A DNA stretch of 61,071 bases, the filler included, from Dugesia japonica (Eukaryota): the NCBI GenBank assembly GCA_001938525.1. It is 5 parts of 5 records of this genome, joined end to end, with 100 filler letters (N's around TTAATTAATTAA, not from the genome) between each part and the next. Parts side by side here need not be neighbours in the genome. Positions count along the whole stretch, not along the records: positions 34,108 to 51,679 come from MQRL01628809.1; 4 more parts are not named here. The stretch is one strand, 5' to 3'. Every line of letters starts with the position of its first letter. Within the stretch, counting starts at the first letter, position 1. The notes below the pieces were generated by a model. That model was not told the DNA's origin, ran no database searches, and saw only the letters and a list, made by a program, of their open reading frames with translations. Made by a program: the position numbers and the translations under genes. Shown here one piece after another: positions 5,374 to 51,723 of this stretch.

Positions 5374-5721
5374 TAAAAGCGTTGATTAAGTGAGCAACCA
5401 TTATTTATACATAATTTTTTATTTAAATGAGTCATTGATAGAAATTTGAATTTTTTGATCGTATGCTATACTGACATTCAAGAATCATTTTAAGCATTAA
5501 ATCATTGCTTGGTTAAATGTCTCCAGTAATTAGAGTTCTCGGTTAAATTAACACTTTTAAAGTGTAGAATGCAGATAAAATTAAATTTGCGGTTGCTTTT
5601 ATATTGTTTGTTGATAAAGACATCTTTAATGTTTTAATAAAATTCCTGGGAATACAATTAAATTATGAATGATGTAGTATACTATAGACCTGTGGTCTGA
5701 AAACTGTGTGCTATGATAATA

Positions 5722-28020: not shown

Positions 28021-31000
28021 ATGTCTACAATTTTATGCATTTCTGAAATCGAAGAACCTATTATATTTCAAACAAGTTTAACAGTAAGTGTAAAACAACA
28101 ATATAATATGTATTGTGTTTTGGTTAAAGATTATTTTATCTTATTTAAAAAGCCATCTGATATAATATCCTTCAAAAGACTTCCTATTACTAATAAAACG
28201 AATATAGAATTGGATAATTCTCAAAATAGTTTATCAATTTCTATAGGATCAAACAAATATACTTTTATCAGTACTGATATTGCATTGATTGAAAATTTGT
28301 TTGATGAAATTACATGTCTTATCAATAATTACATAAGTCCAAAACCATTAATTGATTATGAATATGCTGAAGTGAAAATCGATCAGATTGGATCATCTAG
28401 TGTTTATATTTTAATGGGCCGTGAAGATTATCATTTGTTTATCTATGAGAATCTCGATGAACACCAAAACAATATCGTTTCACATATTATCAATTGTAAA
28501 TTCTATTCTATCGAAAATGATTCAACTCATTCTATCGTGAAATCTTTGAAATTAATAGGTAAAAATCAAACATTTAAAATCAATTTTAAAGACGACACAA
28601 TCGTTGCCGATTGGAAAAGTTTATTTTCAAAATCATTAAATTCAGCTTTTAATGATGACGACTTTAAAATATTAACCGATATTTACGATAATGAATCGAA
28701 CAGGAGTTGTGCAGATTGTGGTAGTCCAAATCCAGAATGGGTTTCGATTAATTTGTTCGTAATTGTCTGTATAAATTGCGCTGGAATCCATAGATCACTC
28801 GGTACATCGGTTTCTCGAATTCAAAGTGCAATTATCGACAAACGAATTTGGGAAAATTCGAATCTAGTAGAAATCATGAAAGAAATCGGAAATGAGAAAT
28901 TGAATTCATTTTGGTGTAGAAATAAACCGAAATCAATTGATAATAAAAACAGTATCAATTCGATTTTATCGGATAATACGATATTCATTAAAGAGAAATA
29001 TCTGATGAAAAAATATATCGATCATGAATTCATCGATAATTCTGACGAAGAATTAAAAGAAAAATTGAAATTATCAGTTGGAACAAACGATCTGTTTTTA
29101 ACAATGCGATTATGGAACTCGATAAATTTCGATTATAACTCGGATTTCGTTGAGAAATTGTTGGAAATATCGAGAAATTCTCAACAAAATCTACAACAAG
29201 AATTTCTATCTGTACAACCGTTGAATAAATCGATTTTAAACACGCATAATTCGATTGTAATCAGTGAAAATGTATTGCAAATCGCTATTAATAATAATAA
29301 TAATTCAGAAAAACTCAATAATTTATTTCTGGTGTCCTTATTGAATAATTGTATATCGATTAAAGTCGAAAATTGCTCTGTAACCCCTATTGAATTAATA
29401 AACGTTTGTTGTATTTATTTTGATAGTATCGATTTAGTTTGGTATGATTATTTCAATAATGAAAATCTAATTATATCCGTTAATCCAGCGAGTAATTTCC
29501 ATAGAATTATCGGTAAAATCTCACTCAATAATTACCAGCAGATCGATGTAGATCGATTTGCATTTTTCAGCCAATCAAAACCGGTTTTAAAAAACTTGAA
29601 ATTTGATTTACTGAAATTATTGATTCCTAATGATAATAAAATAATCAATATTAACAATGATGAATTGACTTTATTTATCAATGTAGACGTGAGAAAAAAT
29701 TTCGAACGTTTCTCGAAATGTAAATGTTTCGTAACAGATCATGAAATTATTTTCTTGTCGCCGTTTTCTATGTTGTATGATTTGAAAAAATCGGAAAAAT
29801 GTGTTTTAATCGATGATAAGAAATCCATTCTGATAAAATTTAAAGTCGATGAACTCGAATTGATTACAACTGGGGTTGAAAATCAGAAAATCATTTATAA
29901 TTGTCTGGAAAAGGGAACGAAATCCAGTGAATTATTGAAGGATCCAATTGATAAAATGATTTTCTTTATCAGTTCTCGGGGTTTAAAATCAGAAGGAATT
30001 TTCCGAATTGGTGGAGCAATTAAAAAAGTAGATGCGCTTTTTAAAACTATAGATAATAAATCCACCAGTTTTACTATTGATCCTAACGTTTACAATGTTA
30101 ATGATGTCGCATCTTGTTTGAAGAAATATTTCCGATCACTTGATGAACCGATAATTAGTTGCGATTTATTTGACAAATTTAAAAGAGCTTCAATCGAACC
30201 AAATGAAAATGAGAAACTTCTTCTTTATAAAGAAGGATTATCACATTTACCACGTGATAATTATTTAGTTTTCCGTAAATTACTCGAACTGTTCTTCATG
30301 ATTCAAATGCCGATTAACCGTAATCGAATGGATAGTTCGAGTTTATCGATTTCCGTTTCTTCGTCTTTCATTTCTTTCGATAATTCCAACATACAAATTA
30401 ATAGTAATATAATGCGAGATCTCATTGAGAATTTTTTCTTTTTGTTTGACTATTCGAAAACCGAATCGGAAATATTGAGAAAATTCGTTGAAGGTCCAGA
30501 CAATGTTGATCAGAATATCATCAGAAACTTTTACGTTCATCCGAAATTGAAAAACAACTTAACGATTAATAAATTCGATAATGGAAAACTGAACTTTCTT
30601 GAACGGGAAATCAATTACATCATCATTAATATCAATATAAACAAATGTGTTGTTGTTAAACACGTTTATGAATTGTTTTTCAATGATTGTGGAATGCAGT
30701 TATGGCATTTTCTAACGAAACGATCGGGGTTTTCGTTGAAAACTATTAAAAGATTGATTTATTTGAATGATGGTATAACTCATTCGATTCTTTATCCGAG
30801 AACTATATTGAACTATGATAGTTATTTTGTTTTTCTAATAAACCCTCAAAATATAAATTCTACTGTGAGAAGATTGTTTCAGTGTGAAGTGAAATTGAAA
30901 TCAGCGGAAAAATATCAAGATTTCACTTTAATGATGAGTTTTCCGACTTCTCTGCAATTTTTCGATGATAAAAGTCATTCTCTTGACCCAGTTTATAATT

Positions 31001-31155
31001 TTCTACTGTCAGATATTATCGTTTACAGATTCCATACGAAAAGTATTAGTAAAATTTTTATTCTGTTCGGTACCAACGGTTTTATAAAGGTTAAATTTGA
31101 TAATTTCGACCTCTTAAAAGAATTTTTATGTATTTATGATCAATTCAGAAATTAA
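28021..31155 (+). CDS. ARAP: ARAP (centaurin-delta)-like protein with PH-like regions, ArfGAP and RhoGAP
   Basis: ArfGAP zinc finger CADCGSPNPEWVSINLFVIVCINCAGIHRSLG. RhoGAP GLKSEGIFRIGG...DVASCLKKYFRSLDEP. 1044-aa open frame with an in-frame TAA just upstream of the ATG. Confidence 0.9.
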   Translation: MSTILCISEIEEPIIFQTSLTVSVKQQYNMYCVLVKDYFILFKKPSDIISFKRLPITNKTNIELDNSQNSLSISIGSNKYTFISTDIALIENLFDEITCLINNYISPKPLIDYEYAEVKIDQIGSSSVYILMGREDYHLFIYENLDEHQNNIVSHIINCKFYSIENDSTHSIVKSLKLIGKNQTFKINFKDDTIVADWKSLFSKSLNSAFNDDDFKILTDIYDNESNRSCADCGSPNPEWVSINLFVIVCINCAGIHRSLGTSVSRIQSAIIDKRIWENSNLVEIMKEIGNEKLNSFWCRNKPKSIDNKNSINSILSDNTIFIKEKYLMKKYIDHEFIDNSDEELKEKLKLSVGTNDLFLTMRLWNSINFDYNSDFVEKLLEISRNSQQNLQQEFLSVQPLNKSILNTHNSIVISENVLQIAINNNNNSEKLNNLFLVSLLNNCISIKVENCSVTPIELINVCCIYFDSIDLVWYDYFNNENLIISVNPASNFHRIIGKISLNNYQQIDVDRFAFFSQSKPVLKNLKFDLLKLLIPNDNKIININNDELTLFINVDVRKNFERFSKCKCFVTDHEIIFLSPFSMLYDLKKSEKCVLIDDKKSILIKFKVDELELITTGVENQKIIYNCLEKGTKSSELLKDPIDKMIFFISSRGLKSEGIFRIGGAIKKVDALFKTIDNKSTSFTIDPNVYNVNDVASCLKKYFRSLDEPIISCDLFDKFKRASIEPNENEKLLLYKEGLSHLPRDNYLVFRKLLELFFMIQMPINRNRMDSSSLSISVSSSFISFDNSNIQINSNIMRDLIENFFFLFDYSKTESEILRKFVEGPDNVDQNIIRNFYVHPKLKNNLTINKFDNGKLNFLEREINYIIINININKCVVVKHVYELFFNDCGMQLWHFLTKRSGFSLKTIKRLIYLNDGITHSILYPRTILNYDSYFVFLINPQNINSTVRRLFQCEVKLKSAEKYQDFTLMMSFPTSLQFFDDKSHSLDPVYNFLLSDIIVYRFHTKSISKIFILFGTNGFIKVKFDNFDLLKEFLCIYDQFRN

Positions 31156-32281: not shown

Positions 32282-34007
32282 AATGGTAGCAAAGATAGCA
32301 AAAAAGTTGAAGAAGAAGAGACTTTGCGGAAAAGAGAGATTATACAAGAAATTAAGTAGATCGAGTAAAGAAAAACAGAGATCGAGTTGATGCAGTTGGA
32401 AATTACGCGGGAGTTACAAATCTAAATTATCAAAAACCGGTAAATTATACAGTGAATAGACATGTGGAGCAAAGAAAGGAAAAACAAAAAATGGAATGTT
32501 GGTAATTTCATAAGATCGGTCATACTAAAGCAAATTGTCCGACAAAAAAAGTAGTAGAGTGCTGGAGTTCTTATAAAACAGGACATATGAGTCGTGATTG
32601 TCCAAATAAAAATCCAATAAAATTTTTTGGTTGTGGAAAGGTTGGCCATATTAGAAGGTTATGTCAAGAAGTGAGGTGTAAACAATGTGGTAATGGTGGA
32701 CATAGAGCAGAAGAGTGCTACACAAATTTAAAAGNAAAAAGAACAAGTGAGAAATTTATGACTGCACAAATATCAAGAAACCAATATAATCGAGTACATG
32801 CTATTGAAGATGAAGATGTCCGAACAAACGATGGATATGAGTAAGTATATGAAAGTGATTCCAAAAGACAGTGCTCCAGCAGTAGAGAAGTTAGTTGGAG
32901 CCATCCATTGTTAAATGAAGTTTGTAATTATCCTCAAGTGGTCGAAAAGTGAGATGATATCGGAAAAATTACAGAAAATGTATACAGGTTTTAAAAGAGG
33001 AAAGGTTTTGCGGATGATAGAAAAGTAGAATGGGTTTGAAAAGTTGATGCAGAAAAGAAAACAAATACTTCTTACCATAAATTGCAAGGCAGACCAAGTG
33101 TTAAGATATCGATTCAAGGAAATAAAGTAGAATGTCTATTAGATACAGGGGCTCGAATTAACGTGATGAGTCAGAGTTTTTTTAATAAATTACAAAAAGT
33201 AAATTTAGAAATGATTGATGAAAATTGCGTTGTGCAAATAATAGTACACATCTAACAAAACACAAAATAATCACAAGTGGTNAACCAATCAATGTAAAAC
33301 CGTATAGACAACCAATGAATTTGAAATCTAAAATTGAAGAAGCTATCCAAAACCTTCTCGAAAATAATATTATCTGGAAATGCAACTCTACATGGAAAAA
33401 CCCACTGATCTGTGTTTGGAAAAAGGAAAAAAAAGACAAAAGAATATGTTTGGATTTCAGACAATTGAATGCAGTAACGAAAAGACAAGCCTTTCCTATG
33501 CCTAATATCGATGAAATGCTGGACAAGTTAGATGGAGCCAAATATTTAGTTCAATAGATTTTGGAAAAGCATACTATCAGGTAGAGTTCGAAGAAGAATA
33601 TCAAGAAAAAATGACGTTTTCAACGAAGCATGGACAATATTATTTTAATATAATGCCATTTGGAATCGCAGCGGCACCAGAGACATTTNNNNNNNNNATG
33701 ACAAATGTGGTAGGCGGAATCACTGGAGCTCTGGTGTATCTTGATGACATCCTGATATTTACCCACAATAAAGATAAACACTATGAAGTAATTGAAAGAG
33801 TGTTGATCGAAATAATGAAGGCTGGTCTAAGAATCAATACAGAAAAGTGTCCGTTTCTTCAAAACGAAATCACCTTGCTCGGACACATAATTAGCAGAGA
33901 TGGTGTTAGAACTGATCCGTCTTAAATAGAAGCTAAGAACATTTGGCAAACCTAACTGTGTGAAGAAGTTACGAAGTTTCTTGGGAATTTATAATTATTA
34001 CAGGAAG
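32282..34007 (+). mobile_element. Gypsy gag (multiple CCHC knuckles), protease and RT, pseudogenised
   Basis: GCGKVGHIRRLC, CKQCGNGGHRAEEC, CLLDTG, ICLDFRQLN, MPFG, VYLDDIL. Runs into the contig end. Confidence 0.95.
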
Positions 34008-34063: not shown

Positions 34064-34479
34064 NNNNNNNNNNNNNNNNNNNNNNNNNNNNNNNNNNNNN
34101 NNNNNNNTATATATATATATATATAATCTAAATATATAATTAAATTTACTTTTTCAAATATTCTCTTCCTTGAGGATTAACCTGTTTTCTTATTGTAATT
34201 CATTTTTATCTAAATAAAATAACAATAAATCTAAAATAAATTAATAAAGAAAAACTTACAAAATTGTTGATAATTGTTATTGTTTTAAAATTTAGAAATT
34301 AAATTGTGACAAAAATTAATCAATAATACTTTTTTGTACACTAGTTTATAAAGAAACCAATAAGATTGTGAGAAAATTTTAAAATACCACAACGCAACAT
34401 ATTGTTGCATTAACAAATTATTAGTCATGAAAATAATAAAGACTAATTAAAAATAAAAAAAATAAAGACATTTTTAATT

Positions 34480-34890
34480 TTATACATTTATTAATATATA
34501 ACATACATTTTCAACTACAATTTTGATATTTATTTACATGAATTTCACTCATAATGTTGATTTTTTAAACATAACAGACAATGTTGACCACAGGTCTTTG
34601 TAAACGGATTTTGAATTCTAATTTTATTATATACAATTGGTTTTGATATTCTTGAGAGATGCGAGACCAACATTTGCGGATAATAAAAACCAATCGGATC
34701 AAAACTAATATTTTCATAGGTTTATGGTTAACTGCTATCCAATGTTCTCCATCGAGATTTGATGTGTGTGTATTGACGATTATGGCTTTATTAACTGGAA
34801 AGTATGGAAGCTTGTCTAGTGGATACACTCTTAACCATGTTGATCCAAGCACTTTTTTCCGATTTGATTAATCTGAATAGAACTATTAAA
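34480..34890 (-). pseudogene. Adenain-like (adenovirus-type) cysteine protease
   Basis: IIVNTH...GEHWIAV (His), FDPIG (Asp), IQNPFTKTCGQHC (Gln, Cys), read across frameshifts. Confidence 0.88.
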
Positions 34891-34983
34891 GTAAAAAATC
34901 AATTATATAATTAGGTATACTTTATAACATATATTGATTATAACATATATTGTTTACACTTATGCCTTTTAATCCAAGTTCGG

Positions 34984-36181
34984 TTAAACCAATACCGTTC
35001 TATTGACGTTAATTTGAATTTCCTTTTCAAATACTCTATTTATTACTACATATGCTGGTACGGACAAAGTTTTTTTCAAACTTTATATCCAATCATAAAT
35101 TACCTTGTTGCGTTAATTGACTTTGAGTTATATCGAAATCCGGAGCCAATACAAATGTAAAGAATGGATACTTGCTTTTTAATTCTTCAAATGTGATTCC
35201 GCAATCCAAATTCTTATTAAAGTATCCCATGTTTCTAACTATAGATTAGATCTATGTCATACTATAATCTTCCTTTTCAAAATCTTGGATATATATCTCT
35301 CGATAATCCGACATGTTTAAATGTTGAAATTGAGCTTTTATAGCCATCATTTAATTGTTCTTCACTTTGAAATGTGATTAAAATAAAGTTAGGCAAACGA
35401 CGATCACCAAATATTTGCTTCTTATGAAATGAAGAACTATTTTTATTAATAGCAAAAGCAACTATTTCCTTGTTTCTTATTGGGTACACTGCATTTTGCT
35501 TATTTAATTCAATTTAATGACCAGTCAATACAAAGGGATCAACTCATACGCGTTTAGCCATTAATTTTGCATCCATATTTTTATATCTAGGTTCATCAGT
35601 TCAAGATTCCAAACATATTTCAAAAGATTCTCTTTTCATTCGAATTTGAAAATTAACTCCAGGAATAAGATATTTTGGTTGATCCATAAATTCGAGTTGT
35701 ATTGATTCCCACAGAGACAATGATTTCTTTATACTCTTTTTTCTATTTGCTTCTGTTCCATATTCAATCTAATAATAAAGATTTTACTATCACCATTATA
35801 ATTCAGTATAGTTTCAATGAATACTTTTTGAATATAAGTTTCATTTCCACCTTCAATTTTGTAAGTATTAAATATCAGAATTACATCTTTTAACAAGGTG
35901 TGAAACATATAGTAGTTAGGCACCACATCTAACTTCTCATCCAATTCCTTTCCAGCCTTTTCAACTGCTTTTACTTGTATAGACAACAGAGTATCATTCA
36001 AATCTACATATTTAGTTTGTGAACCATTTATAATAAAAACCACATCATTTTTTGGATCATATATTAAATTCATTGGAAACACATCTTCAAACGATCCATA
36101 CTCAATAACCTCTTGGAGAGATGGTCGGTCGAAAATACGCAAGTCAGTTTTTCGCAAATCATTAATCGAATATAGTTCCAT
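34984..36181 (-). pseudogene. Major capsid protein (double jelly-roll), frameshifted
   Basis: DLRIFDRPSLQEVIEYG, YVDLNDTLLSIQVK, FMDQPKYLIPGVNFQIRMKR, YPIRNKEI, RLPNFILITF and FTFVLAPD follow the Polinton MCP motif order over about 400 codons. Confidence 0.82.
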
Positions 36182-36596
36182 GTCCTCTCATTCGTTTGTT
36201 TATACCTGATGATCTTGATTTCTTACATTTTTTATTATGTTTTGTAGGTTGTTTTGTTATAGTATTAGTTATACTATTGGGTATCTTGTTAGCTATGCAT
36301 GTTGGCAGCATGTTTGCTACCTTCGGTATCATATTAGTTACGCCAGACGGTAATGAAGACATTACATTTCGAAGCTTAGCTAATGCATTTGATTTTAGGG
36401 ATGATAGTATGTTTCCGTTATTTGCCAGCACATCCTGAGCAGTTTTCCCACCAAATAAACCAAAACGTTTAACAATCGGCAAAGCATATCTTTCAATTGT
36501 TTGCAACCAACCAGATCCATACTGTTTTCCAATAAAGTATGGCAATTCACCACCAACTTGACCGGTACTATACAATGCTACCATTTCAGAATTCAT
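36162..36596 (-). CDS. Conserved Polinton/adintovirus glycine-motif protein between minor and major capsid genes (putative core or membrane-active virion protein)
   Basis: Y...QVGGELPYFIGKQYGSGWLQTIERYALP, basic tail, MRGHG..IF end. Frame still open. Confidence 0.7.
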   Translation of the reverse strand: MNSEMVALYSTGQVGGELPYFIGKQYGSGWLQTIERYALPIVKRFGLFGGKTAQDVLANNGNILSSLKSNALAKLRNVMSSLPSGVTNMIPKVANMLPTCIANKIPNSITNTITKQPTKHNKKCKKSRSSGINKRMRGHGTIFD

Positions 36597-37637
36597 TTAT
36601 TTTTCGAAAATGTAATGTTAAATGAGTTTTTGTATCTTTTGGAAACAAAATTAATTGTTCATTATCATCAGTTATAATTATTTCTATATTGTTTATACGT
36701 GATGTAGAAATAGGCAAATACATGGGATTATCAACAATTATTTGAACCACTTTATCATTTTCTTCGTTATTCATCCAAACTGTTTTCAAAAGAGGAACAT
36801 TTACATCACCTACAATTATCGGTTCGACAATACTACTACATATCAACATTTAATTATGACACTTTAGTAGTTTAGGTTTCTTAATACTCTTGAGTATTTT
36901 ACCTGGTACATTGATGTTAGTTCGAATATATTGCGGTGTTTCTAATCCAAGAGTTTTTCTCAAGGTTGAATGGAATGCAATACTTCTAATTTTATCTCCT
37001 ATTTCTAATTCCATTAACTAATCAGGCTTTAATGTGAATGATTTAAATAGTTTTGAACAGTTTTTATTAATATATTCATTTAATTGATTTAAATCTTTTA
37101 TGAATAATTCATTCTAAAATTGAAATGTATGATCACTTACAGTAAAATAATAGAGTCATCGTTTTTAAATGGTTGCATGTTAATAGAAAATTGATGGTCA
37201 AAATAATGGTTAATTGTTTTATTTAAATTAAATCTCTTTACATTTTCCTCACTATCAATTGACAAAACACTCTCTGAACTAACCGTACTATTATTATTAT
37301 AAGATGTAATCGTATTTCAATTCGAAAATATATGGGTTTCAACACCACTAAATTTTGGCTGTGGTCCTACATAATATAAACTGATTGACTTGTTTTTATT
37401 GTCAATAGAAACAATTATTGCTCTTGTTATAAGATGAAATTCTTGATATTGAATCGTGACGTCACTATAATACGGAAAATGAAAATATACATATGTGAAA
37501 TCCATCATGGCTACTTCCCAATTACCTTCCAAGTAAATCGGATTTTGAAACTCAACATTAAACTTACTAGCTGTATTGTTCGGATAAATAAGAGGACTAC
37601 TATTACTTGGTAAAAGTGTAAAGAAATTGTTGTTTAT
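36586..37637 (-). pseudogene. Minor capsid (penton-like) protein
   Basis: N-terminal FFTLLPSNSS..YPNNTASKFNVEFQNPIYLEGNWEVAM and C-terminal IVEPIIVGDVNVPLLKTV...PMYLPI...LTLHFRK. Confidence 0.85.
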
Positions 37638-37644
37638 TGTTGAT

Positions 37645-38666
37645 TTATTGCGATGCAGATATCCAACTAGGATTTTATAACCATGCCACTTTACATAATA
37701 TTGTTTATTCTGTTTCGTACCCTTTGACCTTATAACATTTTCAATTTTGAATACTGATGGCAGATGAATTACTTGTAGCTCCTATTCATAAAACCTTCCC
37801 TGCATAATATTATTCTCATAATCTTTAATGACATACATGACAGGATTTTGTTTGGTATTGATTTTAAATATTTGAAACACCTCATCACTCTCATTAGTAT
37901 TGAAATTCTTGATGAATTAAGAAGTCAATATCTTTAAAATTCTAACGTGGTCACCAACTTTAAGTTTTGGTTTTTTAATTGCTTTCTTATGTTGTCGTGA
38001 GAGCCACAGTTTTAATTGATTATTTGAACTTACATCAACTGGTCTTTCTCCATTTAAACCCATATGACTTGAATTATTGTAACTATAATTTAGTTTCGGC
38101 AATTATTCATGTTTTATTACCAATATACACAAAATATTTCTTCAAAACATCTCTCAATGTACGATTAAATCTCTCGACATGTGCGGCTTTGTACTGACTA
38201 AATACAGTATAATGATTTATTTTTAAATGCGATGGTAGATTTTTGACTTAAGAAATATAAAATATCTTACCCAAATCTGTTTATAAATTATACGGGTGTC
38301 CATTTTTAAACATTAATTTTATTGCAGCTTCAATATCGGGTGCGGATCTTGATTTGACTGGAACTGTTCTTGCAAATCTGTTTAATGCATCAATACAAGT
38401 CAAAATATATTTGTTTCCTTTATTGATTTTTGAGTATGGAATCATTTCCATTAAATCTATTTGCCATAAATCGTCAATACCATATGTTTTATATGCTCTC
38501 GTTGGAAATCTTTTCAGCATTGGCTTGCTCAGACTGTACGCTAACTGGTTTGATAACCACTTATTTGTTTTGCTTTTCGATTTTGGTGCGGTTTTCATCA
38601 ATTTTCTATGCCACGAAAACTTGCTTTGCTTTTTAGATCCGTCCATATCGTCTGCAGTTTGCCCAT
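37645..38666 (-). pseudogene. Retroviral-type (rve) integrase with C-terminal chromodomain, copy B
   Basis: MGKLQTIWTD, WLSNQLAYSLSKP, WQIDL, YILTCID, AAHVERFNRTL, LKVGDHVRI, GRFYE, KQYYVKWHGY..SWI. Confidence 0.9.
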
Positions 38667-38732
38667 TACAACAATTTGATGAAAATTTGAAATTAAAATT
38701 AGGTAGTGATTGTAAAGCACCCATTGTTTTTT

Positions 38733-39055
38733 TAAAATGAGTCTAGCCTAATGCGGCTAATGAAATTGGTAATAAAGCAGCAATAAAACCACCATCTTGT
38801 TTATCTATTACGTTTCTCATCAATCTCTTGTTCATAGTATTTACAAGCGATACTAACAATTTTTTATATTTTTTCAAGACTTATTCTCTATTTTTGCTTA
38901 CATTTACATTACCATTTACAATATTTACAAAAAAGTTCAATCAAATCATCAATAACATAGGTTGGAAATTATTGCAAAATTTTCATTCTTTTTTGTTTTG
39001 AAGATTTGAGAAATGCTGCAAAAAATGGAATTATTCTTTGTAAATAAATTACATA
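38733..39055 (-). pseudogene. Small Polinton protein with QxGGF and amphipathic C-terminus, copy B
   Basis: VNIVNGNVNVS...LKKYKKLL...KQDGGFIAALLPISLAALG. Confidence 0.7.
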
Positions 39056-39226
39056 CTTGTTGATTGTTTATTAAACATATTTTTGAACTGATTTTTGATT
39101 TTCTTTGTCAGGTTCTTGTTTTACTTTTGAATGCTGCTTATTATCCGAACGTTATTTAGCTTTTGGATTGGTTTGCTCTTGTTTAACTATAACATTTGTA
39201 AATTTCGTCGTTTTGTAACAAAATAA

Positions 39227-39376
39227 TTACTTCGTTTGTTTATACACTATGACGCGATTAGAGTTAAACATATAAGTTCGCACTCTCAAATAATGTGGAC
39301 ATTGTTGTGTAAAGTCTAAGAAGAGGTATCCATGCGGCTTTACTGTTGCATCCTTGAAAGCGTTCAATAGAAATTA
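39227..39376 (-). pseudogene. Packaging ATPase C-terminal fragment, copy B
   Basis: FLLNAFKDATVKPHGYLFLDFTQQCP..LRVRT aligns with copy A FLIESF*DATETPHGNLFLDFTQQFP..YRVRT. Confidence 0.85.
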
Positions 39377-40152
39377 CTATTTAAATTCTTGATAAATGGT
39401 GAAGCTGATATCTTTGAGATTTTCACATGATCACCAACTTTATACTTTAGTTTTTTATTTGCTTTTGAATGTTTACGCGATAATCATAACTTTAATTGAT
39501 TGTTTGTACTTACATCAACCGGTCTTGCTCCATTTAATCCTTTATGACCAGAATGATTATAACTATGAATAAGTTTCGGTAAAACATTTATCCAAGTCTT
39601 ATTACCAACATGTACAAAGTACTTTTTCAATGCATCTCTCAATGTGCGATTAAATCTCTCTACATATGCAGCTTTATACTGCGAGAATACACTATAATAG
39701 TTTATGGATAGATGATTTATAAGTTGTTTCACCTTAGAATTGTAAACTTCCTTTCCCAAATCTGTTTGAAAATTATCTGGATGTCCATTTTTAAACATTG
39801 ACTTGATTACCGGTTCCACATCATTAGCAGATTTTGATTTAACAAGAACAGCTCTTGCAAATCTACTGAATACATCAATATATGTCAAAATATACTTGCA
39901 TCCTTTATTAATGTTTGAATATGGAATCATCTCTATTAGACCCATTTGCCATAAATCATCAATACCATATGTTTTATATGCTCTTGTTGGAAATCTTTTC
40001 AACATCGGCTTGTTCAGGCTGTACGATAGTTGTCACAATAACTACTTTTTTGTATTTCTTTTCATTTTTTGAGCTGCTTTCATCAACTTGTCTACGCCTC
40101 GAACACCTGCTGGGTTTTTTGGATCCGTCCATATTGTCTTTAGTTTCCCCAT
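39377..40152 (-). pseudogene. rve integrase, copy A, 3'-truncated
   Basis: MGKLKTIWTDPKNPAGVRGVDKL, YIDVFSRFA, QTDLGKE, ERFNRTL, KVGDHVKI, then breaks into ATPase sequence. Confidence 0.9.
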
Positions 40153-40210
40153 TACAACAGTTCGATGCCAATTTTAAGTCAAAATTAGATAATGATTGCA
40201 ATTCGCCCAT
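39974..40210 (-). CDS. 78-aa ORF overprinted on the integrase 5' end (MGxxxS and CC motifs)
   Basis: MGELQSLSNFDLKLASNCCNG...EQADVEKISNKSI*. Homologous frame in copy B is MGALQSLPNFNFKFSSNCCNG...EQANAEKISNESI*. Confidence 0.6.
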   Translation of the reverse strand: MGELQSLSNFDLKLASNCCNGETKDNMDGSKKPSRCSRRRQVDESSSKNEKKYKKVVIVTTIVQPEQADVEKISNKSI

Positions 40211-40251
40211 TGTTTATTAAAATATTGATCAAAAGCTTCAATTGTTTATTT

Positions 40252-40557
40252 GAAATGAGTTAAACCTAAAGCTGCTAATGCAATTGGTAGTAATGTTGCT
40301 ATAAATTCACCACCTTGATTAGTTTGTATTACTTTCCTCATCAATCTCCTATTTTTAGTATTTACAAGCGATTATGTTTTTTTATGTTTTTTCAATGTTT
40401 TCTTTTAAACTTCGCTCAAATTTACATTACAGTGTAAAATTTATGATTTTAAATCATCCATAACATATAGTGGAAACAATTCCAAAATTCTCATTCTCAT
40501 TGATTTTGATGATTTAATCAAAGCAGTAAAAAACGGAATACTTCTTTCTAATTTCAT
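40252..40557 (-). pseudogene. Small QxGG/amphipathic protein, copy A
   Basis: MKLERSIPFFTALIKS...NQGGEFIATLLPIALAALGL. Confidence 0.7.
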
Positions 40558-40594
40558 TTTTTTATTTCAAAGCAAAGACATACCAGTTAATTGT

Positions 40595-40938
40595 TTATAA
40601 TGATATCCATTTTCTATTCATAAATTTCAGTTTCTTTCTAGTACTTTTTGCAAGTTTTTTAAACTTATTCAATACATTATTCTTATTTGCATATGGTTTC
40701 TTATGTGATATCCATCTTCCATCTGTCATTTGCAGTTTCTTTTCATCACTTTTTGAAAGTTTTTTAAACTTATTCAACTGTATTTTATTATTTGCATTTG
40801 TTTTCTTATGAGATTGTTTTTGTGAGACTTTTTCTTATAAGATCGATTTGTTTTTTTCTTCAAAACTAACCTTTTCCTTTGTTCAACAACATCACCATCA
40901 GTAACTGAATCAACTACAATTTTCTTAAACTTTGCCAT
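40595..40938 (-). pseudogene. Lysine-rich small protein with an internal repeat of about 35 aa
   Basis: MAKFKKIVVDSV..., then a repeated LNKFKKL.KS..KKL...WIS unit. Confidence 0.5.
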
Positions 40939-40958
40939 TTTATATAATATTATGAAAA

Positions 40959-41611
40959 TTACCTATTTTGTTTATATACTGTGATACCATTAGGGTTGAA
41001 TATATCTGTTCTCACCCTATAATCATCTGGAAATTGTTGTGTAAAGTCGAGAAATAGATTTCCATGTGGTGTTTCTGTCGCATCTTAAAATGATTCAATA
41101 AGAAATTGTCTGTTATTTAGATATGCTTGTCTTGCTAAAAAATCAACAACAGTTTGATCTCTAGGATTTTTGAATAGAACCAAATATTGCAGGTTTAAAT
41201 TGCGTGTTCTATGACTACCTCCTTGATAAAATAGATTTTGTGTAATAAATATAACAGTCACATTACTATGTCTCAATATCTTTGTGAATAAATTATTGAA
41301 ATCTTTTTCTTTATTTGCCTCCTGATACAGATCATCAACAANNNNNNNNNNNNNNNNNNNNNNNNNNNNNNNNNNNNNNNNNNNNNNNNNNTACTCCAAT
41401 TAGAATCAAAACCATTTATGATTTTCATTTTAATATTACAAAATTCAGATTTAGTCAGACCATGCACCTCATCTGAACCTCTATGCTAGTATATGTTTTT
41501 AAATTTAGACTTGAATAACTTTGATTTCAATAATTGACATACAAACAAAGTTTTCCCGCTACCACTAAGTCCAACAATTTGATAGACTGCATCATTTCTT
41601 AATCTCTCCAT
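40959..41611 (-). pseudogene. A32/FtsK-like genome-packaging ATPase, copy A
   Basis: Walker A GLSGSGKT, Walker B VDDL, RHSNVTVIFITQN, RNLNLQYLVLFKNPRD. Confidence 0.92.
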
Positions 41612-41899
41612 CTTGTTTTTCTTTAGTTTACTCATAATTTAGTATATTGTTTATAATTAAAAGTTAAAGAAACATTAAAAATCACGTGACTATGAATTTT
41701 TATTAATAAATAAATAGGTGTGTAACTCAGATGCAACACACATACACTGTAAATCACGCGCTTATGAATTTTAGACTCCCCTCATACCATGTAAAAAATA
41801 AAGACTCCCTCGTCCCTTGCAAAATATTAAGACTACCCCATCTGTTACATAAAAAAATAATTTAATTAAATTTAATTTAATTTAATTTATTTATATTAA

Positions 41900-42065
41900 A
41901 AAGATTTCCCTGCCTTGCAATAAAAAATTTCCAACCAAAATATTGTTTTTAAATTTCCCGCCAAAAATATATTTTTGAATTTCCCGCCAAAAATTTTTTT
42001 AAAAATTTCCCGCCAAAAACGTTTTTGAAAATATTAAGACTCTTCTCTTCCCCGCTCAAAAATCT
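41900..42065. promoter_or_regulatory. Array of TTTCCCGCCAAAA (E2F-consensus-like) motifs at 26-bp spacing
   Basis: Perfect copies start at 41954, 41980 and 42006. Degenerate copies at about 41904, 41928 and 42048. Confidence 0.55.
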
Positions 42066-42769
42066 TACAAAACAACACTTCCCTGATCAAAATACCGAAA
42101 AAATAACCAAAAATACAACAAATACATAAAAATAACATTACTTTCATTAAATTCATCAAATTAAGCAATATACAGCATTTTAAACCAAATTAAATATTTC
42201 AAAACATTATGACGCATAACCAACTGACAGAAAAATTTCAAATAAATATCATAAAATCCAATAATTAATTCTCTTTCCACTCATACCAACCTCCACCTCA
42301 CGAAAATATTTTTAGCACACTTATACCACTTACAAAATAAACCAATCAAATAGTAACCCTTAAAATAAAAAATCAAAGCACATTCGACAACCAACATCTT
42401 CACTATCACATTACCTCTCCAACAAGCCATCAACCAACAAATTCCATCAACAACATAAAAACCTACAAGCCCCACAAAAACCACCCACGATAACTCATAC
42501 GAATGTGCCCGTGTGCCACTACCCTTGTACCGACAACCATCCATCCAAACTCATAAGTCCTTTAGACAATATATAGACCAAATCTTTGTCCAACAACAAA
42601 TAAATCTTNNNNNNNNNNNNNNNNNNNNNNNNNNNNNNNNNNNNNNNNNNNNNNNNNNNNNNNNNNNNNNNNNNNNNNNNNNNNNNNNNNNNNNNTTTTT
42701 AAAAACCACCTTAGCAACCCAAACACACACAAAATTTAAAATTTAAAAATACACACACACTTTCAGGAT

Positions 42770-42960
42770 TAAAAAAAACTGATCAGATCAAAAAAAAATT
42801 TGATCCGATCAAAAAATTTATGATCCCAAAAATCTTAGAAAAAAATCGAGCACAAAAATCATGGCTAAAAAGCGCAGCTTAAGCGTAATGTGTTTCCGAG
42901 CCCCCCTCTGGGAATGGGGGCGATTTAGAAATTGTGCCCATGTGCCACTATCTACCTACT
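42770..42960 (-). repeat. Putative Polinton terminal (TIR) region
   Basis: 5'-AGTAGGTAGATAGTG end, GC-rich subterminal block and GATC-A(n) repeats. Partner TIR is not in the window. Confidence 0.6.
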
Positions 42961-43333
42961 CTCCGTATTAGCCACAAAATGAGTTTTGTTCATTAATCAA
43001 GGAGTATACAAATGTCAACGTTGATTCAGTTCTAGACGAATATTCATCTATATCAATGGCATGTCCCTATAAATGTAATAGTTGCATTCGACGAAATATC
43101 CAGAAAGTTTTACATATTCATATTAACAATCAAAATGAAAAACACTAGAATAATGTTTGTAATAAATGTTTTATAAATGATTTTCTTTTATTTTAACTTT
43201 TTCAATAATCAAANAAATAATCAAAGAAATAAAATATTAACATTTATTAATTATAACAATTACAACAGTTTTAATCACGTTTTATTCAAGTTTGTTAAGT
43301 TTTAATTATCCAAATTGGTGTAGATTCAATATT

Positions 43334-43790
43334 TCATTTCTTGATTCTTTGAATTTCGATTGTAAGCATCCACCTGTCTTTATTTACATATCCTTCATCA
43401 TATGTGTTTTCCAGAACTTCTTTCGAATTACTAAATACATTGTCTTTGATTGGCATTGTTTGGTCCAATCTCAAAAGTACCGAATTTATAATTAATTTAT
43501 CCGACGAACTAATTTCTTTAATCATGTTATATGGACGTCTTTTTAACTTGACAGATTCCTAAATAAAAATTATTAATAGTAAATAATACTAAAAAATAAA
43601 TTACTTGAAATGTATACAGAATAGACTTCTTCAGTAAATTCATTTTATGTTGATGAAAATCAACAATTTTACCACAGTCAAGACTAATGTTCAATACGTT
43701 ATCAATTGTTAGTATTTGCTTTCCTTCCATTTTAAAATAATGAAATTTTTTTTTAAAAACTTTCTTGCTTATATACTTACTTGAACTCAT
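43334..43790 (-). CDS. Two-exon ORF of unknown function (possibly a pseudogene)
   Basis: A 46-nt GT-AG phase-0 intron at 43559-43604 joins ...ILYTFQ to ESVKLKRRPYNMIKEI... in frame. Confidence 0.5.
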
Positions 43791-44009
43791 TAAGTGAATT
43801 TCTTTGGTTGATTTTAACTAGTGTGCGTGGACGTATTTCACAATAACTGCATACTTTCCAATATCTGTACGATTTTAATTCGCTGATAATTCTTTAAATT
43901 TATAAGATTTACAAGTTCAAATCTTATTAATTTCTAAAATAACAGAAAAGAAAGAATCTGAAACAAATAATTACATTGAAAACAAAGATGTTGTATGTTA
44001 ACAAATTTA

Positions 44010-45270
44010 CTAGATATACCCCATAGAAATGCTGTTCATTGCATTTGCATATCCTTCACGATTCCTTTTATAAAAGTCCATTATGTAGGATAATGGCATT
44101 GAAAGAGTATTTGCAGTTTATAATGCCAACCTTCNACAGAGTTTGTTGTTCTGGCTATTCCTTCAGAAGCAATTTCATAATGATTCCAGCTTTCTATTGG
44201 AAAGAGCTCTGAACCATAATATTCAGTACATCCTGATCGCCTTCTGTCTTAAATATAAGTGTGTTTAAAATAGGCCAAAATCTCAGACATCTTATTGTAC
44301 AGCTAATATCATAAAAGCATTAATAACATCTGCTAAAGGAACCATAGCCTAAACAGATAAGCAGCGAATGGCTGTTCACAAACAGTCGATCCTTTTATAA
44401 TAGACTTTCATGCCAATTTCATTTAATTTCCGATTTACACTTTGCATTAGATGAAAATAGCAACCAATAACCTTTGCATTTAGAAAAGCTGCTCTAAAGG
44501 CACATTTTGCAGAAATCTCAAGTTGAGCAGTATTCTATATGTTGAAGCCAGTGGAATACTCTGTTTAATTGCTATTATAATGCGATCATAAACAGCAAGT
44601 ATTTTTGTTTGAATCAGACAGTAAATATCAGTAGGATCTATACCAGGAACAAGTTGAACATGTAAAGTATATTGTTGAAAAAATATAGAAAACACTACTT
44701 TAATCTGCCAACTATAGTTTAGCTCTTGCCAATCCATCCAATAGTTCGTCACTTCCCATTATCAAAGCCGATCGAATCCAGATCCTAAAATCATAAAAAA
44801 TCATATTTTGAAATTCTTCAGGTATATTGAATGTCATATCTTTTGGAGGTGTAAGAAGATATGTCAATACTGACTCCGACTGTATATTTTGGCGTTTTTG
44901 CTGCAAAGTTCGCTTAAGAGAATCCTTTTTTGGTAAAGCTAAAAGAACCTCTGATTAAAGTTTCATACTTACAGAACCTATCACTGCAATTGTTGTAGTT
45001 CATATTTCATCCATTTTGTCTTTCATTTTAGAAACTGATTGTTTGGCCAAAAAAGTATTCTTATTACCATCATAATCACAATCACCCAGTAATTTATCTT
45101 TTGCTATTGTCAAACGGGCTTGATGTTAGCAGATCTGATAACGCTTACAATGCCATTGAAAATTACCATTTGCATATTTCAGGTGCTTAATAAATTCATA
45201 TTGCTTATGCAAAACAGACACTTTCTACTTTTTAGTAGTGCGAAAACTAATTTTATTATCAGTTATTTTA
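44010..45270 (-). mobile_element. MULE (Mutator-like) transposase with FLYWCH-like N-terminus, pseudogenised
   Basis: FQWHCKR, LPKKDSLKRTLQ, KVVFSIFFQQYTLH, VIGCYFHLMQS, FPIESWN, RTTNSVEGWH. Confidence 0.88.
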
Positions 45271-45449
45271 GCCCTTTAAATACTTTAATAAGTATATTTA
45301 TAGCTAATTAAATATTACATAACTAACAAACGTGATTTAGTTTCAAGGATTAAATTAAATCACAGTGATTAATTAATAAATTAATAATGTGGATTGATGC
45401 TTATTTTGTTCTATTTTATCAGTGATTAGGTGTCGAGTGATTAAGTGTC

Positions 45450-48400
45450 ACCAAACCAATTAAATATTAATAATAATAAGCTTCCTAGAGACTATACGAT
45501 AATCTAAATAATAATGCATGTAATAACCCAATCATTAACTAGATTAAAGAATTACATCATTGCATCATTTAAAGATAACTATATTATTTAGTAAAATAAG
45601 TGTAAGTTAGTAGAATAATTATTTATATGTTTAGAAGTATGTTAGAAGTATGTTTCATTACCATAATATTTATTAAATGACAATCTAAAAAGGAGAAATA
45701 AATATATAAATAATTATGATTTGACCAATCACCATACCTCAATCAGCAAAAAAACATTGACCTACATATTGACCAACATACAAAATATTTGAACTCATAG
45801 TCAAATATAAGTTGTGCAACATGCAATTTTAATAATAATTTATAGTAAATATAAAATATCCTCACATTCCCATCTCTTTAAAAGCTCTTAACCACTCTAC
45901 ATTTTTGATAACTATTTTACCATTTTCAAATTTAATGTAATAACTCCTATCTTGTCTCTTTTTAATTATTATTTCTGGGCTTTCGTACATATCTTTGTCC
46001 TTATTAGCAGTGATATTTTTTACCAAAACGTTGTCTCCAATTTTAAAATGTATTTTTGTAATTCTATACATGCTAAGACTAATTTCATCTTGATCAATGA
46101 GATTTGTTATTCTTTTTCCATGTTTCTCTTCGACATTTTCATGAATATTCTATTCTTGTGAAATTTTCTTTCCAAAACCAATTTCTGCTGGACTCAATTT
46201 TAATGTACTTTGATATGAAGAAATTATCATAAATTCTACTTCTGGGAGTATATCTGTCCAATCTTTATTTGTTATATTTTGTAATGTTCTATGAATTACA
46301 GATCCTATAGTTCGAAATTGTCTTTCGATTTATCCATTACTAGAATGATGATACGGACTTGAAATGTTTAACTCTATTCCATGCTTTTCTGTCAATTTTC
46401 TAATCAAATTCGATTCAAATGATCTTACTTTATTACAATTANTAATTTTAGGTGCCCTGAATTTCAAAATCCACTNATTTTTTAATGTATTTGCTACAGT
46501 TTTTTCGGTTTGATCAATTACAGATGTTAATGAAATATACTTGCTAAATTGATTTATAATAGGTAATATATATTTTTTACTATTTCTAGCGGTTTTAAAC
46601 GGTCCACAGAAATCAATATGTATAATTTNNNNNNNNNNNNNNNNNNNNNNNNNNNNNNNNNNNNNNNNNNNNNNNNNNAATTTCAAATATATCTGTAGGC
46701 AATGTTTTAATAATGTCTTCTTTTGTTTTTGAAGTTACAGTTTTCTTTTTTTTGATGTTTTTCACAACTTCTTTTCATCCAGCATAACATAATAATTGAT
46801 TAGTATAATCAATGAATTTGATTCTCATTTCTTTTGAGATCCAGATTTTATTGTGAATTGTATAAACAATATTTTCAATCAATTTAAATTTATAATTTCT
46901 TTCAAATCTTAAGTTCTCTTTAATAACATCGATTTTTTAAAATCCTTCTTGCGATATACCACAATTATTTTGTAACATTAATGGCAATATTTTAGTTTTT
47001 AATTTTCCAGATTTCGGATCTTTATGTATAGTCTGGAATTGGACATACGTTTCACAATCCGTTCTTGAGAGAGCATCTGCATTAAGATGATCTTCACATT
47101 TTCTGTATTCCAATTTAATATCCAAACTGTTAAGATGGTTGATCCAAGTCTGAAATTGTGGTGTTATTGGTCTTTTAGTCTTCAGCATAAACTTTATTGT
47201 TTTATGATCAGTTCTTAATCGAATTATCTGTCCATACAAATAATGTTTCAAATGTTCTTTGAAATAAAAAATCGCCAAAAATTCTTTTCTGGTAATGTAA
47301 TAGCTCAGCTCGTGTTTACTCATGGTTTTAGATCCATAAGCAATATTTTTTTATCAATTTGACTTAAAACTGCACGTATTCTATCAAAGCTGGCATCAGT
47401 ATCCAATATAAATTTTTTAGAAAAATTCAGAAATGCTAAAACTGGAGCTTTCATTAGTTCAGCTTTCAAATCTCTTCAGTATATTTTTTTCTGGTTACTA
47501 CTACGTAGATTTTCTAAACATTTTGTCTACTTTGTGTAATCCTTTATAAATTTTCTATAATAATTTGCGAGGCATAAAAAACTACTCAACTTTTTACACA
47601 TTTTGGGGTTTTAAAATTAAAAATTGCTTCAATTTTTTTATTATCAGTATCAATTCCTTTTGAATTAATAATATGACCCAGAAATTTTATCTCGTTTTTC
47701 ATGAAATGACATTTAGATGGACTTATTTTAAAACCGGCTTCTTTTATACGTTTCAAAACCTTGTCAATTCTCTTATAGTGTTCTTTAATAGTTTCAGGAA
47801 AAAATTAAAATATCATTTAAGTAAGCCACTGCTTAATTACCATTTAAGGGACCTAAAACCTTATTCATCAATTTCTGAAAAATAGCAGTAGCAGCTGCAA
47901 TTCCAAAGAGCATTCTATTAAAATAATATTGTGCACCTTTTGTCGAAAATTCAATTTTATATTTTAAGTCATCTGTTAATTCTACTTGATAGTAAGCATT
48001 ACCAAAATCTATACTTGTAAAATATTTGGCTCCATATAAAATATCCATCATTTCCGCAGTGTTTGGAATAGGAAAAATTGGTCTTTCTGTCACTTCATTT
48101 AACAATCTATAATCTAATCAAAGTAGTATTTCATCATTGTCTCGTTTTTTTATGCAAACCTAAGGAGCATTCAAAGGGGAGTCACATTTATTTATAATTC
48201 CATTTATTTCTATTTCTTTAATATTTTGCTCAATCCTATCTATTAAATGATAAGGTTGACGCCTAGGATTAATTGCAAAATTGGTTTACTACTGTTTTTA
48301 TTTCATGTTTTACAATATTAGTTTTTTCAATATCCAATTTATGTTTCATTATAATACTTTCATATTTTTCTAAAATCGTCAATATCATTTTATCTTTAAT

Positions 48401-48800
48401 ATTTTCAATTTCTAATATTTTTGGTTTAAATTAAATTACATTAACAGATTCTTCATTAAATGGCGAGTTCTATATTAAATTTATTCAAAAGATTTATTCC
48501 ACAAATAACGGGTGGGGATATTTCTTTAGCAACATAAAAACAAAAATTCTTCATTTTTCTATTAAGCTTTACATTTAAGTATACTTTTCCTACAATTTCT
48601 AAAGAACTATTATTTGCACATTTGACATTTATATTAGAATCAATTATTGAAACTTTTCCTATTCTTTTTAATAATTCGTATATAATAACACTAATTTTAG
48701 CTCCAGTATCAAGTAAACATGATGTAACAATATTATTAATTTTTAAATTAATTGTAGGTCAACTATCTAGGGTATTATAGTTTTCATAAATTTCTTTATC
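45450..48800 (-). mobile_element. Gypsy protease, RT, RNase H and integrase remnant with 3' LTR
   Basis: CLLDTGAKISV (about 48700), FTSIDFGNAYYQ, LDTDASF, LRTDH, HIDFCGP, SSPYHHSSNG. PPT at 45867-45879 followed by TGTGAGG. Distal LTR end is approximate. Confidence 0.93.
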
Positions 48801-48879
48801 AAAATTATTAATAATTGATAAATTATTATTATCGTCATAATTATCATTGTTAAGTAAATCTTCAATTGTTAATTCATTT

Positions 48880-51533: not shown

Positions 51534-51723
51534 TTTGTTGTTGGGTATTTCTACTCAACAAAAGATTTTATGGTTCGAAAATATAATTAAGATTTTACGG
51601 GTGTCAAATTCTTTATCTTTAATTGTGTGTCGATACAATATTATATAATCAATATGTGACAATGTAAATAAACTAATATNNNNNNNNNNNNNNNNNNNNN
51701 NNNNNNNNNNNNNNNNNNNNNNN

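Follow-up and report, generated by a model that had tools for sequence, protein, structure and literature searches.

A decayed Polinton/Maverick copy, likely a hybrid of two sister families, in the genome of Dugesia japonica

The Dugesia japonica region described here belongs to the endogenous Polinton/adintovirus-like elements and has a genuine capsid-morphogenesis module (Table 1). Very probably we are dealing with an ordinary adintovirus-type Polinton/Maverick that has decayed and is likely a hybrid between two sister families; its PolB probably either sits past the assembly break or has been deleted. The element is an ordinary member of this common, known type; the genes of this copy are pseudogenes, and its capsid-morphogenesis module is not functional. 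The window, that is, the whole stretch of 61,071 nucleotides analysed, consists of separate pieces linked via N44-TTAATTAATTAA-N44 spacers, and the assembled piece holding the element starts at 34108. An earlier note on this DNA described an endogenous virus of this kind with a virion module at 34480..42960. The identity and the module stand, as does the likely terminus at 42960, which is present in the sequence; position 34480 need not be an end, since the piece starts at 34108, and a single functional element is not what we find, the copy being broken and likely two elements joined.

Table 1. Features of the element, listed from the terminus inward
Feature	Positions	Strand	Evidence
Likely left terminus, begins AGTAG	42948..42960	-	sequence; contig-depth drop; resemblance to Maverick end motif
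Sub-terminal non-coding region, 87-N gap	41640..42947		relatives' ORFs without match; contig depth
Three 26-base repeats containing TTTCCCGCC	41926..42026		sequence; shuffle test
Packaging ATPase, copy A, stops, internal 50-N gap	40965..41611	-	Pox_A32; L008
Lysine-rich ORF remnants	40598..40943	-	sequence
QxGG gene, copy A, 3 stops	40252..40557	-	46% to L005/L008 ORFs, E 1e-19 or better
Small conserved Met-Gly ORF, copy A	39977..40210	-	L013 ORF
rve integrase, copy A, ends at about residue 260/345, 3 stops	39370..40152	-	Pfam rve E 7.6e-9
A/B joint (integrase of A, ATPase 3' end of B)	39370..39376		few-base overlap, no N gap
ATPase, copy B, last 46 residues only	39233..39373	-	L008 ATPase (70%, E 3e-17)
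QxGG gene, copy B, frameshift and stops	38734..39043	-	sequence comparison with relatives
Small conserved Met-Gly ORF, copy B	38485..38724	-	L013 ORF
rve integrase with chromodomain, copy B, full span, broken	37627..38660	-	rve E 4e-5; Chromo E 0.0017
Minor capsid/penton (PX), broken	36598..37637	-	33-43% to relatives, E to 6e-28
Glycine-motif gene, open frame, no stop	36165..36596	-	43% over 114 aa to L008
Major capsid (PY), 4 pieces, 6 internal stops	34987..36151 (aligned)	-	P0272, P0122
Adenain-type cysteine protease, one frameshift	34548..34858 (34554-34858 aligned)	-	L008; motifs
AT-rich non-coding stretch, 16% GC, (TA)n at piece edge	34108..34547		sequence

Inward from 42960 the minus strand carries ATPase, lysine-rich ORF, QxGG gene, integrase with chromodomain, minor capsid, glycine-motif gene, major capsid and protease. 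This is the order previously claimed for eight tightly packed, co-oriented genes; seven are well matched, and the lysine-rich ORF, which carries a 105-base tandem repeat (81%), gives weak matches only (E 0.015), to small K-rich ORFs at the equivalent place in relatives. All strongly matched genes are broken except the glycine-motif ORF. The same gene order is found, as far as each extends, in 14/14 related loci holding both integrase and this capsid type. Copy A of the ATPase has a Walker A motif (GLSGSGKT), and its pieces are 57% and 77% identical to the L008 ATPase; its N-piece matches Pox_A32 at E 4e-4, below Pfam's cut-off, and the L006 ATPase does so at 4.8e-6, above it. The integrase is 73-74% (copy A) and 67-75% (copy B) identical to P0001/P0002. 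A small Met-Gly ORF overlapping the integrase start, absent from the earlier note, matches the L013 ORF (E 5e-10 and 1.5e-7), and the QxGG gene is predicted to encode a pX-like core protein. The protease pieces are 57% and 49% identical to L008, the His, Asp, Gln and Cys motifs are visible, and the protease of another relative, L029, matches Peptidase_C5 (E 1e-7). Pfam gave no match for the glycine-motif and cupiennin/GasderminX-candidate ORFs. The glycine-motif gene occupies the PW (cupiennin-like) position, in agreement with the place of PW in vertebrate Mavericks (PMC8097293).

The major capsid is 55-68% identical to P0272 and 48-59% to P0122, nearly over the full length. Capsid folds were modelled on intact relatives, and they bear out the jelly-roll expectation: the P0122 model (pLDDT 94) is a double jelly-roll that matches iridovirus, PBCV-1, Sputnik and mavirus capsids (E 2.5e-17 to 4e-12). 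The L011 penton, 37-40% identical to the window's minor capsid gene, gives a model that matches mavirus, Sputnik, adenovirus and PBCV-1 pentons, with E 5.5e-7 against the mavirus penton (Z 10.7, rmsd 8.6, 230 aligned) and Z 12.0 against 6ncl_a6 (rmsd 3.3, 130 aligned). Judging from this modelled relative, the minor capsid is a single jelly-roll penton (PX) encoded near the capsid gene. Because intact relatives reach 79% identity in the integrase, 72% in the N-part of the major capsid and about 77-80% in the C-part of the ATPase, the strongly divergent lineage suggested earlier is not supported.

The terminus at 42960 reads AGTAGG.., and the flank CTCCGT noted earlier is indeed present beside it. 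Summed contig depth in X1 falls from 141,765 (bin 42788-43097) to 2,978 (bin 43098-43400), and the drop past 42960 is similar in X2, X4 and X9. AGTAG resembles the (AGT)2 motif found at Maverick ends (PMC8097293). No partner arm of a terminal inverted repeat was found within the window, nor is a 6-base target site duplication visible there, the assembled piece being without the other end. A resemblance of this terminus to the start of L006 was rejected, as 212/2000 shuffles score equally high. The sub-terminal region has high contig depth in four runs, shows no match to relatives' ORFs searched against it, and is too short for PolB or the accessory genes placed there in relatives. Two of its three 26-base repeats have an adjacent TTYRAA (2 matches against 0.02 expected; 0/100 shuffles), and we take these repeats with TTYRAA to be E2F/CHR-like. 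A protein atlas search with a flank ORF (43337-43558) returned no usable match. At the other side, the AT-rich stretch is likely the spacer that precedes PolB, or else host DNA left beside the element by a deletion. Contig depth over 34211-34504 is weak proof that this spacer belongs to the element, since similar depth is seen at 43185-43329 beyond the terminus, and poly(A) loose ends at 34430/34466 (X21) were dismissed because the stretch there is A-rich.

The ATPase 3' end, the QxGG gene and the integrase are each present twice, which the earlier note missed. The copies lie head-to-tail at an offset of 1.5-1.7 kb (39373-40551 against 37893-39043, 74% over 1196 columns; 40957-41107 against 39225-39375, 76%). 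Such an arrangement could come from an old tandem duplication within one element followed by neutral decay, and penton genes are in fact tandemly duplicated in L001, L006 and L048. However, the differences between copies A and B number 43/39/86 at the first, second and third codon positions (p 4e-6), with dN/dS 0.19 and dS 0.8 (247 codons), and the 76% identity of the two copies is comparable to that of A or B with P0001/P0002 (76-79%); third-position bias, dN/dS and distance together point to divergence under selection, not to neutral decay of a duplicate. Moreover, two separate integrase genes occur in 0/65 loci with an integrase match (L038 and L039 have only an overlapping frameshifted piece, not a second gene), and we regard tandem duplication as very unlikely. 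An assembly error joining contigs of two different copies is somewhat less improbable, though still unlikely. The family is extremely repetitive (50,503 X1 contigs match 9.3 kb), the assembly is fragmented with many N gaps, and no contig among the matches listed bridges the A/B joint. Against this, the joint has no N gap, and its sides share only a few bases and are copies 26% apart, while mis-joins need long near-identical overlap. A 74% repeat with dN/dS 0.19 makes this copy likely a hybrid of two once-active families; by sequence, it appears to be two elements joined, from sister families. In keeping with this, other copies, as seen in their contigs and reads, pass over the repeat or run around it.

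PolB was reported as not visible, and this is borne out for the whole 61 kb: 0/120 PolB homologues match at E<0.01, and a 45-sequence PolB profile, which finds the L006 PolB at 1731 bits, reaches E 0.44 at best. Together with the lack of room between terminus and ATPase, and the lack of any PZ or PolB trace in the 440 bases past the protease, this could speak for a lineage that truly lacks PolB and depends on helpers, retaining integrase and capsid genes while using the polymerase of autonomous Polintons. However, the assembled piece ends just there, 440 bases past the protease, where two of the three long relatives carry PolB; in L011, the protease is followed by 277 bases of about 20% GC and then the PolB 3' end (the window's spacer of 440 bases and 16% GC is longer and ends in a microsatellite). 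Among the 14 integrase and capsid loci, all from relatives and none a PolB-bearing copy from the host itself, a protein-primed PolB is present in 3/3 above 12 kb (L006, L011 and L064) and in 0/11 that are no longer than 8.4 kb. To the extent that relatives are informative, long copies have PolB, which the earlier note had said would count against the PolB-less idea; it was also right to offer a PolB beyond the contig break. Three more integrase relatives have a longest contig equally long as that of a PolB relative (13555, 15324, 17960), which suggests integrase-PolB linkage in these as well. The place of PolB is not fixed, as it lies upstream of ATPase in L064, L019 and L033, and L029 and L049 extend 1.6 and 1.3 kb beyond the protease without it. 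In a quick tree, built without named adintovirus reference sequences, the window's capsid piece falls in a 19-row clade with L006 and L011 (SH-aLRT 99); its nearest relatives form a 12-row subclade (P0271-P0281) that contributes no genomic context and enters no PolB count, a point in favour of a PolB-less lineage, the PolB-bearing L006 and L011 being in the sister part. Because the piece ends so close to the protease, the long relatives all have PolB, and gene losses in so heavily broken a copy are uninformative on the lineage, the helper-dependent reading is unsupported and we hold it highly improbable. We find it equally hard to believe that the hybrid belongs, as an old member, to a recombinant subfamily without PolB which spread in the host using the polymerase of autonomous sister Polintons.

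PolB identity in the relatives rests on motifs, PHROG 1907 and homologues. The L006 and L011 proteins retain Exo I-III and Pol A-C motifs and an endonuclease VII insert, L011 PolB matches PHROG 1907 (E 5e-20), and homologues of both match Pfam DNA_pol_B_2. PF03175 at E 0.01 gave no match on these two proteins themselves and is present on close L011 PolB homologues; a PDB sequence search with L006 PolB returned nothing. L006 and L011 showed no terminal inverted repeats at their ends, and these loci are not demonstrably complete.

From what is known of the family, the intact ancestor would have been copied by protein-primed PolB from terminal repeats and inserted by its rve integrase; major capsid and penton would have formed an icosahedral particle, which the ATPase would have filled and the protease brought to maturity. 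Element A, from the terminus to mid-integrase, may then have been joined to element B, from the ATPase end to the protease, with an overlap of a few bases. The simplest route would be a deletion reaching from one insertion into another that lay beside or within it, which would also have taken out A's own capsid genes and PolB. The hybrid would have decayed after joining; among vertebrate Maverick loci, 96% are degraded as well (PMC8097293). If the copy is such a decayed hybrid, we lean slightly towards the assembly break rather than deletion for the missing PolB of B.

RNA raw reads under the same species label, three of the four runs being from one study, gave 140, 2287, 2118 and 2442 matches from 10.5-13.6 million per run, on both strands, of which 1, 5, 3 and 1 were at least 99% identical. 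These are low-level transcripts of other copies of this highly repeated family and do not support expression of this copy. A search across sequencing runs listed no RNA run that contains it. Viral-contig scans with the window integrase piece and a close capsid alignment found no relatives, and a scan with the integrase alignment found 10 more distant loci (35-43%, different gene order).

In animal genomes Polinton copies are as a rule degraded, and this one is of little consequence in itself. It does warn clearly against taking the lack of PolB at the edge of an assembly for a trait of the lineage, and it is of modest interest in recording the joint of two sister families. Its clade is marked by an ATPase-first layout, an endonuclease VII-bearing PolB, and TBP-like and other host-like accessory genes, and has many intact members in metagenomes. 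If a satellite family with capsid genes and no PolB were real, it would bear on the mutual dependence of these elements, and a PolB-less recombinant subfamily would amount to a satellite that lives off an endogenous animal DNA virus; our evidence speaks against such a satellite family. In the literature, we found no account of this hybrid or of an animal Polinton family that encodes capsids but no PolB, though a search of this kind cannot prove that none exists.

As described for Polintons/Mavericks (Krupovic et al., 2014, PMC4028283), the element has a double jelly-roll PY with the penton PX one gene upstream, an A32-like ATPase, an adenovirus-like protease and an rve integrase, and at the N-terminus its penton resembles, when compared by eye, the PX group of turtle, frog, sea urchin and Ciona. 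Unlike those Polintons, this copy is broken and likely hybrid, and its assembled piece shows neither PolB nor a second terminal repeat. The planarian Schmidtea mediterranea has catalogued Polintons, Polinton-1_SM and Polinton-2_SM (11.6-15.9 kb; PMC4028283 Table S1), which carry penton and ATPase, the two longer entries also capsid and protease; their sizes fit L006 and L011, a likeness by description, not sequence, and four short capsid motifs had 0 matches in 4 paper supplements, themselves without a visible SM capsid sequence. Some adintoviruses (Starrett et al., 2021, PMC8502044) combine an Alpha (pfam03175) PolB that begins with an OTU domain and a virion module of the Beta/Terrapene class, with cupiennin-like and GasderminX genes and with hexon and penton in the Terrapene cluster; TBP- and TRAF-like accessory genes are named in the figure legends. 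The PolB of the relatives, to judge by PF03175 on L011 PolB homologues, may fit this type, as may the element's cupiennin-position gene (a positional match only) and its predicted pX-like QxGG gene. Vertebrate Mavericks (Barreat and Katzourakis, 2021, PMC8097293) share the int-mcp-pw-Mcp-pro order, probably the AGT-type end, and the mostly degraded state of copies, but their ATPase is grouped with PolB and PZ on the other strand; in the element and in L006, L011 and L064, the ATPase is co-oriented with and upstream of the integrase, and in these three relatives PolB stands alone on the opposite strand.

Intact relatives searched against the window by tblastn recovered a minus-strand gene series from 42960 inward (ATPase, K-rich ORF, QxGG gene, small Met-Gly ORF, integrase, penton or minor capsid, glycine-motif gene, major capsid, and protease), the K-rich ORF matching weakly, and Pfam detected rve, chromo, and A32 on the window pieces; the co-oriented virion gene set proposed in the earlier note was recovered in its order. 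Stops or frameshifts interrupt all strongly matched genes but the glycine-motif and small Met-Gly ORFs, and the major capsid gene is in four pieces with six stops. We regard the region as a real but ordinary, decayed Polinton copy, and likely a hybrid.

The ATPase 3′ end, QxGG gene, and integrase are present twice within the element, as copies A and B, a duplication that the earlier note overlooked. Integrase A breaks off near residue 260 and is joined directly to the C-terminal 46 residues of another ATPase; the QxGG gene then recurs, followed by an integrase of full span and the capsid module. Because the two integrases differ mostly at third codon positions (43/39/86 differences at positions 1/2/3; dN/dS 0.19, dS 0.8), and A and B are no more alike than either is to outside relatives, they are likely separately selected families joined in the window copy. 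The join shows a few bases of overlap, contigs and RNA reads from other copies skip or bypass the repeat, and two integrase genes were found together in none of the 65 loci with an integrase match; an assembly mis-join is a possible explanation of the repeat, less likely than the joining of two families. In Polintons PolB, the protein-primed polymerase, is described as replicating the element and the integrase as inserting it, and capsid, penton, ATPase, and protease are predicted to form a virion (PMC4028283; PMC8502044; PMC8097293; PMC6431247). A and B insertions that lay side by side or one within the other would have been fused by a deletion into the hybrid, which may now be inert.

Coordinates of features in the window and in related loci (L numbers)
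Feature	Location	Strand	Remark
Assembly piece with the element	34108-51679		
Element	34480-42960	-	extent given in the earlier note
Repeat	37893-39043 and 39373-40551		74% identity
Repeat	39225-39375 and 40957-41107		76% identity
26-base repeats	41926-42026		~300 bases upstream of ATPase; presumably E2F/CHR-like
Repeated right flank	43000-45000		contig depth >1,000 at 43185-43329
ORF remnants	44030-44954		MULE transposase-like by eye; no match in Pfam search
ArfGAP + RhoGAP host gene	28018-31155	+	neighboring piece; 1045-codon unbroken ORF; presumably ARAP-like
Decayed LTR retrotransposon	32300-34007	+	zinc knuckle, RT, RNase H
Decayed LTR retrotransposon	49450-51500	-	as above
Decayed LTR retrotransposon	5700-7700		as above
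TBP-like gene	L011:2175-2618		
Host-like accessory genes	L006:225-719; L008:952-1260; L004:1710-2168; L020:1545-2729		

Among 50%-cluster representatives, the N-terminal piece of the window capsid had 395 relatives at E 0.001, with full-length relatives up to 72% identity, and P0122, an intact relative, spans the gene at 48-59% identity. Folds were predicted for intact relatives standing in for the broken window genes. The P0122 model (pLDDT 94) matches the double jelly-roll capsids of iridovirus, PBCV-1, Sputnik, and mavirus, and that of the L011 penton (pLDDT 82, pTM 0.51, 15 sequences) matches the pentons of mavirus, Sputnik, PBCV-1, and adenovirus; these models favor the putative major and minor capsid assignments. 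Two tandem penton genes, ~30-35% alike, occur in L001, L003, L006, L048, and L065.

None of 120 PolB homologues matched the window, and a PolB profile gave a best E of 0.44 there versus 1731 bits on L006, bearing out the observation that PolB is not visible. Related loci numbered 66 (53 metagenome and 10 viral from the integrase alignment, three more from the capsid alignment), and 14 of these combined the integrase with the window's capsid type, in the window's gene order. PolB was present in all three of the 14 longer than 12 kb; the other 11, at most 8.4 kb long, had none within their span. In L006 and L011 it lies on the opposite strand and directly follows the protease (PZ may be present or absent); its exonuclease and polymerase motifs are intact, and it has an endonuclease VII insert. 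Pfam DNA_pol_B_2 was found on close homologues. The protease-PolB gap of L011 is 277 AT-rich bases, and the window runs for 440 bases at 16% GC after the protease before the assembly piece ends. PolB is upstream of the ATPase in L064, L019, and L033; in the window, that side of the ATPase spans just 1.3 kb to the terminus. A quick tree placed the window capsid piece in a 19-row clade with L006 and L011 (SH-aLRT 99), its nearest 11 relatives being without DNA context. Because of the long relatives, the L011 spacer, and this clade, the lineage, as distinct from this copy cut by the assembly break, very likely encodes PolB. The PolB-less lineage, which the earlier note offered as one option, is unsupported, given the three long loci, and we consider it highly improbable.

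In four DNA-like runs, 2,885 to 50,503 contigs mapped on 9.3 kb, mostly at <95% identity, and summed contig depth, which does not equal copy number, fell by a factor of ~50 or more to the right of the bin containing 42960; these counts and this drop support a large family with a terminus near 42960, at 310-base resolution. RNA reads on the element were few, with almost none at 99% identity to the window copy. The 26-base-repeat motif had no site in eight of nine related loci scanned and one site in L020.

The window strings assembly pieces together via N44-TTAATTAATTAA-N44 spacers; its DNA is ~25% GC and rich in decayed retrotransposons, two of the three LTR copies being 81-92% alike in inverted orientation.

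A TBP-like gene, absent from the window copy, was found in eight related loci (L004, L006, L007, L011, L021, L029, L037, and L064), where it either lies upstream of the ATPase or follows the protease. Its Pfam TBP matches have E 5e-18 and 2e-17, and its PDB TBP matches reach 5e-17; a figure legend already names such genes (PMC8502044). Relatives also carry host-like genes for a ubiquitin-conjugating enzyme, dual-specificity phosphatase, RING finger, and TRAF/MATH. Polinton contigs of the window element's clade (L064, L065, and L066) were binned in three bacterial MAGs, likely as contamination.

Planarian Polintons are already catalogued (PMC4028283, Table S1), are described as piRNA targets (PMC8532177), and are reported as expanded in Dugesia (10.64898/2025.12.11.693146); in nematodes, Polinton classes are described as having exchanged PolB (10.1101/2023.08.22.554363). 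The element end reads AGTAG, near the (AGT)2 end motif of Mavericks (PMC8097293), and its module of integrase, penton, glycine-motif gene in the PW position, capsid, and protease is that described for vertebrate Mavericks (PMC8097293). Together with PolB of the PF03175 type, a module of this kind resembles the mixed Alpha/Beta adintoviruses described in PMC8502044, a candidate assignment. In line with the Polinton/adintovirus-like reading of the earlier note, the element works like a Polinton/Maverick, and on every testable feature it is one.
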